This document shows positions 36,919-39,585 of a DNA stretch of 64,000 bases, piece by piece. Made by a program: the position numbers and the translations under genes. The stretch covers positions 11,256 to 75,255 of the forward strand of contig CALXBW010000004.1 of NCBI GenBank assembly GCA_944386645.1, in the 5' to 3' direction. The notes under the pieces were generated by a model that saw only the letters and a list, made by a program, of their open reading frames with translations, ran no database searches and had not been told where the DNA came from. This DNA is from an uncultured Clostridia bacterium (GTDB lineage Bacteria; Bacillota; Clostridia; TANB77; CAG-508). Every line of letters starts with the position of its first letter. Position 1 is the stretch's first letter.

Positions 36919-38076
36919 ATGGCCAATTATGTATATAGAGCGGTATTAGAAAACTACAGTAAAGAAGAAGGAATAAAATGTAAAGAAAAAGATTCTGATA
37001 AATCTTTAAGTTATCATGTTAATTTTGGAAGTAAAAAGAATGTGAAAACAAAATATATATCTACTAGTAAAAAAATAGGAATTGCTGCATATAAATATGC
37101 AATAGGTAAAGTTAATGAAAACAGAATTAAAAGATCAAAAATAGTATTAATAGATTTAGATAAATTACCAAAAGAACAAAAATATTATGACTTAACAGAT
37201 GAAACTGTATTAAAAGAACAAAAAATTAGTCGTATGTCGAAAAATTATTGTAAATCAGATGCAGAAGTTACAATAGAAGGAGATATAGGACCTGAATGTG
37301 TAAAAGAAATACCACCAATGTTAGTAGATATTTTGTTTGCACTTGAGAGTTCTGGTAATGCAAATAAAATGTTCTATGATATGTTATTAGACAGAGTGGC
37401 TGAAGGTGATATGGAACTAGATAAAATAATTGAAAAATGTAAATTTAATAAATTAGAGCAAAATTTTATTAAATCATATTATACAGATATGAATCAATTA
37501 GAAGAAACAGCTAAACAAATACTGCCTGAGATGTTGGATGAGAAAAAAGAAGATAATAGAGAGTTTATAGCAAATTGTATAAGAACACAGATAATAAAAA
37601 ATGTTGTAGCATCACAATTACATAGAGATTTAAAATATTATACAGGTCCATTAGAAGGAAAATTAAATTCTCATTATAGAACAGAAAAAGATAGAGTGAA
37701 AAAAGATTGTTATTATTTTAATGATTATTTATCAATAAAAGTAAATAATGATGATATGATAAAACTACCAAATGGAATTAATTATGAAGTTGGTAAGAAA
37801 AATGAAGTTAAAACATTGCAGTTAATAGAAGCGCATTTAACTAAAGAAAATTTTGAAACTCCATCAATACCACGTGATAAAGACAATAGATATAAATCAT
37901 TTGAAGGAATAAGAATAGAAATTGATAAAAAAAGAGTAAAAGATAATAATGAAATAAATTTAGATGATATAAAAAGTACATTAAAAATAGGAAATGCAAA
38001 AGAGAGAAAAGAAGTAGATAATTATATTCAAAGACAAATGCAAAGACAAAGAGGAGCGCGCGAAAGAGGGGAATAA
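36919..38076 (+). CDS. Hypothetical protein A of an uncharacterised four-gene cassette (385 aa)
   Basis: Lys/Glu-rich. N-terminal region contains YVYR...YISTSKK. No confidently recognised domain. Translationally coupled to the next ORF (taaAATG). Confidence 0.45.
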   Translation: MANYVYRAVLENYSKEEGIKCKEKDSDKSLSYHVNFGSKKNVKTKYISTSKKIGIAAYKYAIGKVNENRIKRSKIVLIDLDKLPKEQKYYDLTDETVLKEQKISRMSKNYCKSDAEVTIEGDIGPECVKEIPPMLVDILFALESSGNANKMFYDMLLDRVAEGDMELDKIIEKCKFNKLEQNFIKSYYTDMNQLEETAKQILPEMLDEKKEDNREFIANCIRTQIIKNVVASQLHRDLKYYTGPLEGKLNSHYRTEKDRVKKDCYYFNDYLSIKVNNDDMIKLPNGINYEVGKKNEVKTLQLIEAHLTKENFETPSIPRDKDNRYKSFEGIRIEIDKKRVKDNNEINLDDIKSTLKIGNAKERKEVDNYIQRQMQRQRGARERGE

Positions 38077-38077
38077 A

Positions 38078-38524
38078 ATGAATGTGTATACAAATGAAGA
38101 TTACAGTAAAGCATATTCAGAAGTATTAGAAGTTTTAAGATATATACCAAAAGTAGATTTAGTAAAAATACCAAAAGATGAGATAATGTTTTATATAAAA
38201 AATATGGACAATAAACATAATTACAAATACAATTTTAATAAACCATTTGAAGATCAAAAATTAATGAGATTAAGTAAAATAATTATATCAAATATTTATA
38301 TAAAGTATTTAGCAAAAAATAAAGAAGAATTATTAGAAAATGAAAGAAAAGAAATTCTGAAGTTAGAAGAAGAAAATAGAAAAATATATAACACAGATAA
38401 TATATTTAGAAATAAGAATTTAGATATTGAAAAAGATGAAAATAATAGTTTGATTGTTATAGAAAAACAAGGATTTTTTAGGAAAATAATAGATAAAATT
38501 AGGAGATTGTTCAAGTTGACATAA
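38078..38524 (+). CDS. Hypothetical protein B (148 aa)
   Basis: The start is 2 nt after the stop of gene A. No motif recognised. Confidence 0.45.
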   Translation: MNVYTNEDYSKAYSEVLEVLRYIPKVDLVKIPKDEIMFYIKNMDNKHNYKYNFNKPFEDQKLMRLSKIIISNIYIKYLAKNKEELLENERKEILKLEEENRKIYNTDNIFRNKNLDIEKDENNSLIVIEKQGFFRKIIDKIRRLFKLT

Positions 38525-38600
38525 AAACCAAAATATGGTATAATATTTAAGTAAAAATTTTTATTAAAAAATTAATTGATTTTGAGGAGGAATCCGAAAG

Positions 38601-38894
38601 ATGAATATTAAAGAAATTATTTATGGTGACGAAGGTGTTTTAAATCGTTTTAGAAATGGAGATTATACCATTTCTAATGAGGAGAAAAGCACAATATTAG
38701 ATTTTGCTAGAAAAGTAAATTCTGGTGTCAAAGAGGGAAATTTAAACCCTCAGGACTTTGCTCTTTACAGTGAGTTAATGTATTTTTTTATACATTATTC
38801 TAAAGAGGTTGATGGAGTAGAAGAACTTCTTGATGAGATTTATGGGGAAGTTCAAGATGGATTAGATTTTGATTACAATGAGGAGGATGAATAA
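38601..38894 (+). CDS. Hypothetical acidic protein C (97 aa)
   Basis: RBS gaggagg. C-terminal acidic tail DGLDFDYNEEDE. GC is higher than for genes A and B. Confidence 0.45.
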   Translation: MNIKEIIYGDEGVLNRFRNGDYTISNEEKSTILDFARKVNSGVKEGNLNPQDFALYSELMYFFIHYSKEVDGVEELLDEIYGEVQDGLDFDYNEEDE

Positions 38895-38898
38895 TAAT

Positions 38899-39543
38899 AT
38901 GGCGACACGTCCATCATGGAGAATAGTAAAAACGGATAACTTTATCAAAATTGTAAAAAATCACTTTGAATTTAAATTTAATCCAGGTTTTTCTGTTACT
39001 CAAAAACGGAAAAATGTAGTTGCTTTACACCAAGCAATTGGTGATAAAGCATTAGAGGTTTCAACTAAATCTGATCTGAAACTCGGAAGAATGTTAAGTG
39101 CATTCAATTTAAGAATCAACGGAATACCACTTGAGTGTGTATTCCAATCTGCTAAGGTTTATCAATATGGAGGACCTTATAAAGACCTCTTAAATGTGTC
39201 TCCAAAAGATGCTAAAAGAGATGAGCGTCACAAGAGTTCAGGAAAATTAATCTACTTCGAATATGAAGGAAAAAGATTTCCTCTTGAACCAAAAACATTC
39301 TTTTATGACTTTATTTATATAAAGGCTGTAAAAGAGTGTATTCCTTTGGAGGAGGTAAAAGATATAGTTCAGTATTCGCATTTTTCGGATATTGAATTCA
39401 ATCCTAAAAAATCAATTAACTGCCAAGCTAAAAGCGTTGCTATAATTAAAGCAATGCTGATGGTATTTGGCGAAGTTCCTCATATCAATGATATTGAGGA
39501 ATTTAAAAAATTTTACAAAGTAATTCAGGCAGAAAATGCTTGA
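38899..39543 (+). CDS. Hypothetical protein D (214 aa)
   Basis: Start reassigned to the ATG at 38899 (RBS gaggagga 10 nt upstream). Contains YQYGGPYKDLL and FYDFIYIKAV. ~35% GC against the ~25% background. A strong terminator follows it. Confidence 0.45.
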   Translation: MATRPSWRIVKTDNFIKIVKNHFEFKFNPGFSVTQKRKNVVALHQAIGDKALEVSTKSDLKLGRMLSAFNLRINGIPLECVFQSAKVYQYGGPYKDLLNVSPKDAKRDERHKSSGKLIYFEYEGKRFPLEPKTFFYDFIYIKAVKECIPLEEVKDIVQYSHFSDIEFNPKKSINCQAKSVAIIKAMLMVFGEVPHINDIEEFKKFYKVIQAENA

Positions 39544-39548
39544 ATTAC

Positions 39549-39585
39549 AGAGAATCTCCCAGTTTATCTGGGAGATTCTTTTATG
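39549..39585 (+). terminator. Rho-independent terminator ending the four-gene cassette
   Basis: AGAATCTCCCAGtttatCTGGGAGATTCTtttat. Confidence 0.8.

Follow-up and report, generated by a model that had tools for sequence, protein, structure and literature searches.

A predicted DUF7587/TreThr-family ADP-ribosyltransferase paired with a NADAR hydrolase in a four-gene cassette of gut Clostridia, a probable toxin-antitoxin-type module

Introduction

Several described bacterial systems join an ADP-ribosyltransferase (ART) toxin to a protein that neutralises it, and the closest to the locus considered here is the anti-phage system DarTG1, in which DarT (PF14487, an ARTD/H-Y-E enzyme) modifies guanine in single-stranded DNA in a sequence-specific manner and a NADAR-family antitoxin erases the modification (Schuller et al. 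2023, PMC11543638). The present analysis concerns a cassette of four genes, A to D, in 64,000 nucleotides of DNA from an uncultured Clostridia bacterium (assembly GCA_944386645.1, contig CALXBW010000004.1, positions 11,256 to 75,255 of the forward strand); this whole stretch is referred to as the window, and coordinates are given within it. An original prediction, made from the letters alone, had seen in these genes a layout resembling toxin/immunity or phage-defence cassettes. The cassette is read here, with a probability of about 0.65, as a chromosomal toxin-antitoxin-type module of four genes, a DarTG1-like system in which the toxin partner has been swapped.

36919..38076, + strand: gene A, an open reading frame (ORF) of 385 amino acids (aa), predicted toxin, cytoplasmic and multi-domain
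38078..38524, + strand: gene B, an ORF of 148 aa, a partner translationally coupled to A
38601..38894, + strand: gene C, an ORF of 97 aa, acidic, isoelectric point (pI) 4.1
38899..39543, + strand: gene D, 214 aa from its ATG, NADAR ADP-ribosylglycohydrolase and predicted antitoxin
39550..39585, + strand: intrinsic terminator closing the cassette, a 13-bp GC-containing stem followed by UUUUAU (-24 kcal/mol, z -5.4)

Like DarTG1, the cassette brings together in one locus a predicted ART toxin and an enzymatic eraser of guanine-ADP-ribose, and its antitoxin belongs to the same subfamily (PF22397/BC4488) with the same catalytic E/K/D residues. It differs in that A is an R-S-E ART of the DUF7587/TreThr family rather than DarT, in having four genes instead of two and, here, a perfect promoter of the antitoxin's own, in a substrate that may be RNA, and in NADARs that branch apart from the DarT-linked ones.

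The nearest characterised relative of A is TreThr, also called RhsF-CT, of C. violaceum (PDB 9ZDM chain B), which forms the C-terminal tip of a type VI secretion system Rhs toxin in a Gram-negative bacterium and is neutralised solely by the occluding protein RhsFi. Its toxicity depends on R1403, Y1456 and E1497. Its target is charged tRNAThr, which it ADP-ribosylates in the GGU anticodon at positions 35-36; by analogy with ScARP, which acts on guanine N2, G35 has been put forward as the acceptor, and the authors regard the acceptor atom as still in need of chemical characterisation (bioRxiv 10.64898/2025.12.06.692724; NAR 2026, PMC13617354). The ART domain of A is homologous to TreThr, with the same Arg, Ser/Thr, Tyr and Glu on a minimal fold of ~125-130 aa, but it stands at the N-terminus of a cytoplasmic 385-aa Clostridia protein that has a hydrolase as its partner, and B and C have no detectable similarity to RhsFi. 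NADAR is not mentioned in the TreThr paper.

Precedent for partner swapping is provided by YarT-YbiA (Cihlova et al. 2024, PMC11125620) and by the phosphoribosyltransferase-NADAR pair DS-32 (DefensePredictor preprint), in which NADAR-family antitoxins accompany toxins other than DarT. YarT is an H-Y-E (HYD1-clade) ART with a YbiA-type NADAR that carries Glu at the D171-equivalent position, whereas A is of the R-S-E type and D has Asp164; the phosphoribosyltransferase toxin of DS-32 is unlike A, and both systems are without B- or C-like components. Tre1-Tri1 and TreX-TriX contain R-S-E clade ARTs that are structurally similar to A (template-modelling score 0.6 for TreX), but Tre1 and TreX are secreted effectors that act on protein (an arginine of FtsZ), and their immunity proteins are ARH/DraG-type hydrolases or purely occluding, not NADARs. 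Tri1 unites active-site occlusion with ADP-ribosylhydrolase activity, two functions for which a division between C and D is proposed here. CmdTAC resembles the cassette as a multi-component defence module with small accessory proteins and an ART toxin that targets RNA (mRNA in CmdTAC, possibly RNA here), although it has an ART of an unrelated family and an antitoxin other than a hydrolase, and its SecB-like chaperone domain went undetected in B or C. A DUF7587/TreThr-type ART paired with a NADAR was not found described in the literature searched, and the name DUF7587 had no occurrence in the indexed literature searched.

Gene D encodes a predicted DarT1-type NADAR

D matches the Pfam family of DarT1-associated NADAR antitoxins, PF22397, over residues 2-204 of 214 (E 1e-67), and the crystallised NADAR of Geobacter lovleyi, 8BAT, with E 2.3e-38. 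Its catalytic residues were located by comparison with the E. coli C7 NADAR, for which mutagenesis has established that E88, K95, D171 and K115 are required to remove ADP-ribose from guanine as well as for rescue from DarT1 (Schuller et al. 2023, PMC11543638).

39133-35 (E79), 39154-56 (K86) and 39388-90 (D164), + strand: catalytic residues of D, with K106 and E166 in addition, mapped onto E. coli C7 NADAR

E79, K86, K106, D164 and E166 correspond to E88, K95, K115, D171 and E173 of that enzyme, and E79-x6-K86, K106 and D164-x-E166 (within FSDIEFNP) are invariant among the cassette NADARs. Asp at the position equivalent to D164 marks the DarT1-associated (BC4488) subfamily, YbiA-type enzymes having Glu (PMC11543638). 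Judged by its sequence, D is a full-length DarT1-type (BC4488) NADAR whose catalytic residues are intact. NADARs are the sole hydrolases found to undo ADP-ribosylation of the guanosine base, in DNA and RNA alike.

The original prediction had recognised no family in any of the four proteins and had described D as a second enzyme-sized protein, alongside the small acidic C. D is not a second toxin or enzyme that needs C for immunity; it belongs to PF22397 (E 1e-67), the ADP-ribosylglycohydrolases that serve as DarTG1 antitoxins, and A contains a Pfam domain above threshold (PF24494, residues 22-128). That account was largely right, and its hunch of a toxin with ART features was correct; what it missed was the decisive identification of the NADAR.

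Gene A begins with a predicted ADP-ribosyltransferase domain

Three domains are distinguished in A, of which the first carries the predicted active site.

36919..37314, + strand: residues 1-132 of A, ART domain (DUF7587/TreThr family), assigned by PF24494, profile, Foldseek and residue conservation
36937-39 (R7), 37060-65 (S48/T49), 37096-98 (Y60) and 37264-66 (E116), + strand: predicted catalytic residues of A, from alignment to TreThr
37315..37638, + strand: residues 133-240 of A, acidic helical domain (IPPxxVDIL, FNxLEKxFIxxYY), conserved in the ~400-aa cassette subfamily
37639..38073, + strand: residues 241-385 of A, beta-rich domain and basic C-terminal helix, from AlphaFold2 (AF2) secondary structure; the most strain-variable part

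The only Pfam match of A, that of residues 22-128 to PF24494 (DUF7587), lies just above threshold, at 31.1 bits against a cutoff of 27. A word-index search returned only four close clusters, and a genome scan with the single protein found one metagenome-assembled genome only, of an uncultured Clostridia bacterium. A full HMMER scan of 1.8 billion representatives gave 89 cluster representatives, in which the ~130-aa DUF7587 domain is either N-terminal in proteins of ~400-680 aa or the C-terminal tip of longer proteins, two of these having a pretoxin-HINT (PT-HINT) domain as well. R7, G37, I47, S48 and E116 are at least 90% conserved among the relatives, and Y60, H33, D79 and D91 are also well conserved. 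The family profile of A matches 9ZDM_B with E 6.8e-18, and a profile made from cassette members only does so with E 2.5e-7; in the HMMER alignment R7, S48/T49, Y60 and E116 of A fall on R1403, S1445/T1446, Y1456 and E1497 of TreThr.

Modelling points in the same direction. Single-sequence AF2 reached a predicted local distance difference test score (pLDDT) of only 34, whereas the model built with an 85-sequence multiple alignment had a pLDDT of 88.8 and a predicted template-modelling score of 0.83, with strands at residues 4-9, 46-50 and 116-120 and with the R-S-E hallmarks YVYR (R7) on strand 1 and ISTS (S48) on strand 2. When this model was searched against the PDB with Foldseek, ART toxins made up 29 of the 31 best matches and 31 of the first 32, the two remaining matches being alignments of very low probability to a homologue of diphtheria toxin that is an ART toxin too. 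The toxins matched comprise EcPltA, PltC, CARDS, typhoid toxin PltA, pertussis S1, cholera A1 and the Rhs toxins TreX/TreTu, with probabilities of 0.95-1.0 for EcPltA, PltA, pertussis S1 and cholera A1. A viral fold search (BFVD) gave nothing significant, the best entry being a KptA-like protein at E 0.1. By profile and model, A starts with an R-S-E ADP-ribosyltransferase domain of the DUF7587/TreThr family.

The toxin/immunity-type layout and the ART resemblance of A that were first proposed have accordingly held up, the latter by profile, conservation and Foldseek. The YVYR and YISTS motifs picked out by eye are real catalytic elements, R7 and S48 being near-invariant in 85 relatives. Where no clear Q/E-x-E had been seen, the catalytic Glu is present: it is E116 of KSDAEVT, which 77 of 80 aligned domains share, and only position -2 is not conserved (Asp in A; D/S/A/E/Q/M across the family). 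The suggested likeness to C3/iota-type toxins has to be replaced: no C3 or iota toxin appeared among the Foldseek PDB matches at E <= 1, and the closest proteins are TreThr/RhsF-CT, pertussis/PltA-like and Rhs Tre toxins.

Elsewhere the DUF7587 domain is the C-terminal tip of PT-HINT and Rhs toxins. The ~400-aa architecture of A is conserved as a stand-alone cytoplasmic protein; A has no transmembrane segment or signal peptide, hydrophobic segments are found in none of A, B, C and D, and no PT-HINT, Rhs/YD, LXG/WXG or other trafficking domain was detected in A. As a separate observation, the helical middle domain of the cassette A proteins (residues ~173-249 of A, 37435-37665) gave a weak profile match to the helical domain of ARL2-binding protein (BART) with a shared FxxLxxxFxxxYY (E 0.0085), which is probably not meaningful.

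The cassette recurs in divergent lineages

Linked A-(B)-C-NADAR genes were found in at least 10 divergent lineages. Their neighbourhoods are unrelated, and in them proteins 30-45% identical to A precede B-, C- and NADAR-type genes. Compared loci are numbered with the prefix L. The genes come in four orders (A-B-C-D, A-C-D, D-A-B-C, and A-B-C facing D), and the A-type ART and NADAR genes are at most ~1.5 kb apart wherever the contig extends far enough. The cassette lies between an M50 peptidase gene and aspS in L007, adjoins smc and is without B in L009, and adjoins mutL with the NADAR gene inverted in L011-L013. A scan of metagenome contigs from the NADAR side covered 80 loci and found ART, B or C genes beside the NADAR gene in 14, adding the arrangement D-A-B-C and one in which a 675-aa A-like gene is followed by C and D.

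The NADAR loci on viral contigs are different. All 32 are without ART, B or C by the profiles used, and 22 of them have a DarT gene, detected with a DarT profile that was seeded from the viral loci and confirmed by Pfam PF14487 in two. With the same profile no DarT came up in any cassette locus, among them the syntenic L003 of 21 kb, although the DarT model was not run on the remainder of the 64-kb window; for want of DarT, therefore, the cassette is not to be filed as DarTG1. In a rough neighbour-joining tree, which has no bootstrap support, the DarT-linked (prophage) NADARs form one clade and the cassette NADARs lie at the base of the other.

Two further NADAR contexts were seen. In L039-L046 and L050 (for example L045:4373-6639), NADAR genes whose products are 55% identical to D follow a WYL/WCX-domain regulator and a cysteine-rich ORF of ~91 aa, with no ART. 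L035 (2950-6642) holds a NADAR that the rough tree places among those of the cassettes. Upstream of its gene lie ORFs of 400 aa and 214 aa and a gene for a GGDEF-domain protein; ART, B and C were undetected there by the profiles used, and the locus may represent another partner set or a diverged cassette.

A conserved promoter lies between A-B and C-D

Two promoter-like sites divide the cassette into A-B and C-D.

36860..36888, + strand: promoter-like site upstream of A, TTGACT-17-TATAAT, 11/12
38516..38544, + strand: consensus sigma-70-type promoter of C-D, TTGACA-17-TATAAT with extended TG, 12/12
38541..38574, no strand assigned: AT-rich palindrome that overlaps the -10 of the C-D promoter and extends past it, 20-nt arms, 85% complementary

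The 12/12 promoter before C stands at the same place in 10 of 10 cassettes, whose proteins share only 23-46% identity, and perfect consensus sites number only four across the 64-kb window; the promoters upstream of A score 9-11 of 12 across cassettes. Even in the D-first arrangement of L036 the NADAR gene is preceded by a perfect promoter of its own. Given perfect C-D promoters and weaker A promoters, the antidote side therefore appears consistently wired for maximal constitutive expression. The -35 hexamer coincides with the last two codons of B (Leu-Thr), its Leu-Thr-stop being encoded by TTGACATAA (38510-38524), with equivalent sites in L001, L004, L007, L011, L033 and L053; the C-terminal Leu-Thr of B is conserved because these codons form the -35 hexamer, and the promoter element and the coding end of B constrain each other. 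In L009, which lacks B, the hexamer is placed directly after A. The palindrome is a possible operator, though it may be chance.

Genes B and C belong to small-protein families with a defined context

B is present in most cassettes and missing from the A-C-D versions L009 and L071; its family alignment spans 38-69% identity. The longer (~675-aa) A-like proteins were considered as possible fusions of A with B, and no B-like segment was found in them.

C is present in every complete cassette, always adjoins B or A and usually lies directly upstream of the NADAR gene, and its homologues are all acidic (pI 4.1-4.6). A second family of small proteins (~94-100 aa), designated X, is encoded directly upstream of NADAR genes in loci without a detectable ART (L087, L092-L097, L101-L103, L105, L108, L109, L111). 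One member, of 96 aa (L025:1863-2153), immediately follows a 559-aa protein whose C-terminal domain is DUF7587. In profile-profile comparison (hhalign), C and X align in register from the N-terminus, with a probability of 54% for the deep C profile, 10% for small profiles and 3% for single sequences. That C and X proteins could be cognate binders in conflicts between ARTs and NADARs is offered as a lead rather than a finding, and the X-NADAR pairs may be orphan two-gene immunity modules.

In another locus (L024:4001-6272), a PT-HINT protein with C-terminal DUF7587 is followed by a 104-aa ORF and a DUF6939 protein of 184 aa. No similarity was found between C and the 104-aa ORF. DUF6939 was considered as a relative of NADAR and set aside, as only an E-x3-Q-x2-K motif is shared, at an hhalign probability of 0.7% and with no PDB match.

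The cassette is fixed and mosaic within the species

Further contigs of the species were found via an identical 74-aa protein encoded downstream of ponA, and the cassette lies between spoIIID and ponA in seven of seven distinct long contigs. The variable presence between these genes that the original prediction had proposed looking for is not seen; the cassette is fixed, though mosaic in sequence. L003 and L029 have flanking proteins 99-100% identical to those of the window, while A is 90% identical with an unchanged ART domain, 35 of the 38 substitutions lying at or after residue 250 in a patch that runs into residues 1-39 of B. L030 has an allelic patch at residues 140-228 of A, and in L031 A and B are 97-100% identical, but C is only 76% and D 86%. 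The synonymous divergence (dS) is 0.4-0.5 inside such patches against 0-0.04 outside; within A it is 0.46 for the tract from residue ~241 to 385 and 0.037 for the remainder. The ratio of nonsynonymous to synonymous divergence (dN/dS) is 0.04-0.09 in the ART domain and 0.17-0.37 in the variable domains. The variation is recombination between divergent alleles around a constrained catalytic core, and it resembles that of conflict systems.

At the left side, the sequences of some strains diverge before A is reached.

36824..36828, no strand assigned: left junction, where homology to the window ends in some strains with identical SpoIIID

In L016 and L018-L020 (first 70-283 nt), the SpoIIID protein is identical and homology is lost ~95 nt upstream of A, and L017 (first 69 nt) shows a third variant; the alternative sequence includes the 3' end of an ORF (…KYGVLGIKLELL*) on the strand opposite to A. 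Five other contigs end within 40 nt of the start of A. The left junction thus has alternative arrangements; searching with the alternative spoIIID-side sequence, at the protein level and by exact DNA match in metagenomes, returned nothing.

Layout, composition and surroundings of the locus

The physical description in the original prediction proved accurate as to four same-strand ORFs, coupling of A and B, a strong terminator, and flanks of spoIIID and a penicillin-binding protein (PBP) gene, as well as to the acidity of C, which has pI 4.1 and a net charge of -16. One base separates A from B (gaaTAAaATG), and the ribosome-binding site of B lies within the 3' end of A; D starts at an ATG 4 bases past C, with its ribosome-binding site GAGGAGGA within the end of C. 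The terminator hairpin is strong (z = -5.4 relative to shuffles). spoIIID (PF12116) flanks the cassette on one side and the class A PBP gene ponA (Transgly and Transpeptidase) on the other. D is basic (pI 9.4), and so is the ART part of A (pI 9.2).

The stated composition of C and D (~35% GC) is corrected to 30-32%. GC fractions are 0.250 for A, 0.190 for B, 0.303 for C and 0.321 for D, against a mean of 0.262 (sd 0.034) for the 46 ORFs of the window; C and D are inside the range of host genes, as a comparison with ponA (0.290) and spoIIID (0.305) illustrates. The break is weak, with only the GC content at third codon positions mildly raised, to 0.20 in C and 0.23 in D against a mean of 0.124 (sd 0.047). 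A separate horizontal origin of C-D, considered on account of the break, is rejected since their GC falls within the host range. A functional and recombinational boundary between B and C is real. No integrase or flanking repeats marking an insertion were found at the cassette, the search for direct and inverted repeats having given AT-rich chance matches only.

Some neighbouring features may be recorded. A hairpin with a perfect 20-bp stem (36447-36494), between a convergent gene for a DUF2142-family membrane protein and spoIIID, is probably a bidirectional terminator; the single Rfam match, mir-335 on this hairpin, is far under the gathering score and was judged spurious. The PBP1A-like protein has, before its membrane anchor, a cytoplasmic N-terminal extension of ~170 aa (39944-40450) that is extremely Lys/Asn/Glu-rich and holds an internal repeat, EKLILVVDDKEKS / EKLVLVVDDENKD. 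Further away (2190-4175), a 661-aa ORF encodes a Walker A-like motif, GEWGSGKTYF, and its product, which by eye we take to resemble KAP-family P-loop NTPases, would belong to a group that is frequent in conflict islands.

Proposed mechanism and alternative explanations

That A and D form a functional pair of ART and eraser is highly probable, and for the module to work in toxin-antitoxin or defence fashion the odds are put slightly above even. Most likely, A would use NAD+ to attach ADP-ribose to a guanine base in nucleic acid, and D would cleave the guanine-ADP-ribose bond, reversing the damage as a type IV-like enzymatic antitoxin; this is the most economical reading because NADARs alone reverse ADP-ribosylation of the guanosine base and the nearest characterised relative of A modifies a guanine-containing anticodon. 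By homology to TreThr, tRNA or another RNA is the leading candidate for the substrate, with single-stranded DNA as a possibility; a guanine of tRNA or other RNA as the target is a tentative suggestion. Modification by A would halt translation or replication. Expression of C-D from the perfect promoter and of A-B from the weaker one would keep the antidote in excess. C could act as a stoichiometric inhibitor or adaptor of the basic ART, of the NADAR or of both, and B as a partner or chaperone of the non-catalytic part of A. Specificity or sensing may reside in the variable helical and beta domains of A. Growth would be arrested once A is released, as might happen upon phage infection or loss of C-D expression.

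A number of observations weigh against this reading. The activity, toxicity and substrate of A and its rescue by D are all inferred, as are the trigger, any action against phage and what B and C do, and with neither Glu nor Gln conserved at -2 the acceptor chemistry is unreadable from the motif. B and C have no match in Pfam, NCBIfam, PHROGs, PADLOC or PDB sequences, singly or as family profiles, and their profiles match neither RhsFi (9ZDM chain A) nor any other PDB chain; the relationship of C to the X family is, on profile evidence, only suggestive. A PADLOC check of the kind the original prediction had proposed matched 0 of the 4 cassette proteins. NADAR-DarT1 relatives also occur as orphans beside unrelated genes, and adjacency alone is therefore not proof. 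The cassette occupies a fixed chromosomal locus between core genes in all seven long contigs, unlike a typical mobile defence island, and positive selection on the variable domains of A is rejected, dN/dS there not being above 1.

The fixed position, without mobility genes, is what would be expected of an endogenous regulatory system in which A and D reversibly ADP-ribosylate nucleic acid (or protein) and thereby adjust translation, replication or sporulation. Purifying selection acts on writer and eraser alike, both of which are intact; a physiological role of DarTG in mycobacteria has been reported (PMC12170906), and DarTG has been proposed to control growth in M. tuberculosis. Such a role is nevertheless unlikely, as the non-catalytic parts are mosaic between strains with identical flanks, the same ART domain is the killing module of Rhs and PT-HINT toxins, the promoter asymmetry fits antidote excess, and other lineages carry the cassette in unrelated neighbourhoods with shuffled gene order. 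The original prediction had named a conserved core cassette of ordinary metabolic or sporulation genes as the contrary case; the conservation is found in the seven contigs of the species, while the neighbourhoods in other lineages are unrelated and the functions recognised are not ordinary metabolic or sporulation ones.

Export of A as an interbacterial, polymorphic-type toxin, with B and/or C providing immunity and D serving as back-up repair for the producer and its kin, is very unlikely. The ART domain is at the extreme N-terminus of A, which has no signal peptide and no LXG/WXG, Rhs/YD, PT-HINT or other trafficking domain; its ~400-aa architecture is that of a conserved stand-alone cytoplasmic protein, and no secretion genes lie near the cassette. 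What speaks for export is that the DUF7587 tips of PT-HINT and Rhs toxins are each trailed by a small ORF in the immunity position, that one of these (L025, 96 aa) belongs to the family also encoded directly upstream of orphan NADAR genes and weakly resembles C, and that Tre1/Tri1 demonstrates that an immunity protein can be a hydrolase.

It is highly improbable that D is an ordinary metabolic YbiA-type N-glycosidase engaged in the clean-up of riboflavin intermediates, placed beside A-C incidentally so that the four genes are not one system, since, notwithstanding the known metabolic activity of NADAR/YbiA enzymes (PMC11543638), the many gut NADAR-DarT1 relatives that are orphans beside unrelated genes and the separate promoter of C-D, D fits the DarT1-associated subfamily model over its full length, has Asp where YbiA-type enzymes have Glu, and remains linked to the ART through four gene orders in at least 10 lineages.

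Implications

Read as a toxin-antitoxin-type module, the cassette ties the NADAR erasers of guanine-ADP-ribose to the tRNA-modifying ART family of TreThr, and the conserved operon predicts that enzymes of that family form an N-glycosidic guanine-ADP-ribose bond. With it, partner swapping in ADP-ribosylation modules of the toxin-antitoxin and defence kind reaches Gram-positive gut anaerobes; the families of the small uncharacterised proteins B and C gain a defined context and Pfam DUF7587 gains a function. The invariant perfect promoter, whose -35 lies within the final codons of B, is unusually clean and conserved. More speculatively, and with doubt attached, the cassette may be the founding example of a four-component system, chromosomally fixed in gut Clostridia, in which a TreThr-family ART reversibly modifies a guanine of a tRNA anticodon or other RNA, the NADAR erases the mark, the recombining non-catalytic domains of A act with B as trigger or specificity element, and C serves as a stoichiometric brake. 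Were this true, it would be the first enzymatically reversible tRNA-base ADP-ribosylation toxin-antitoxin or defence system, and the toxin-less pairs of a C-like protein and a NADAR would, as a corollary, constitute stand-alone immunity against DUF7587 toxins delivered by competitors.

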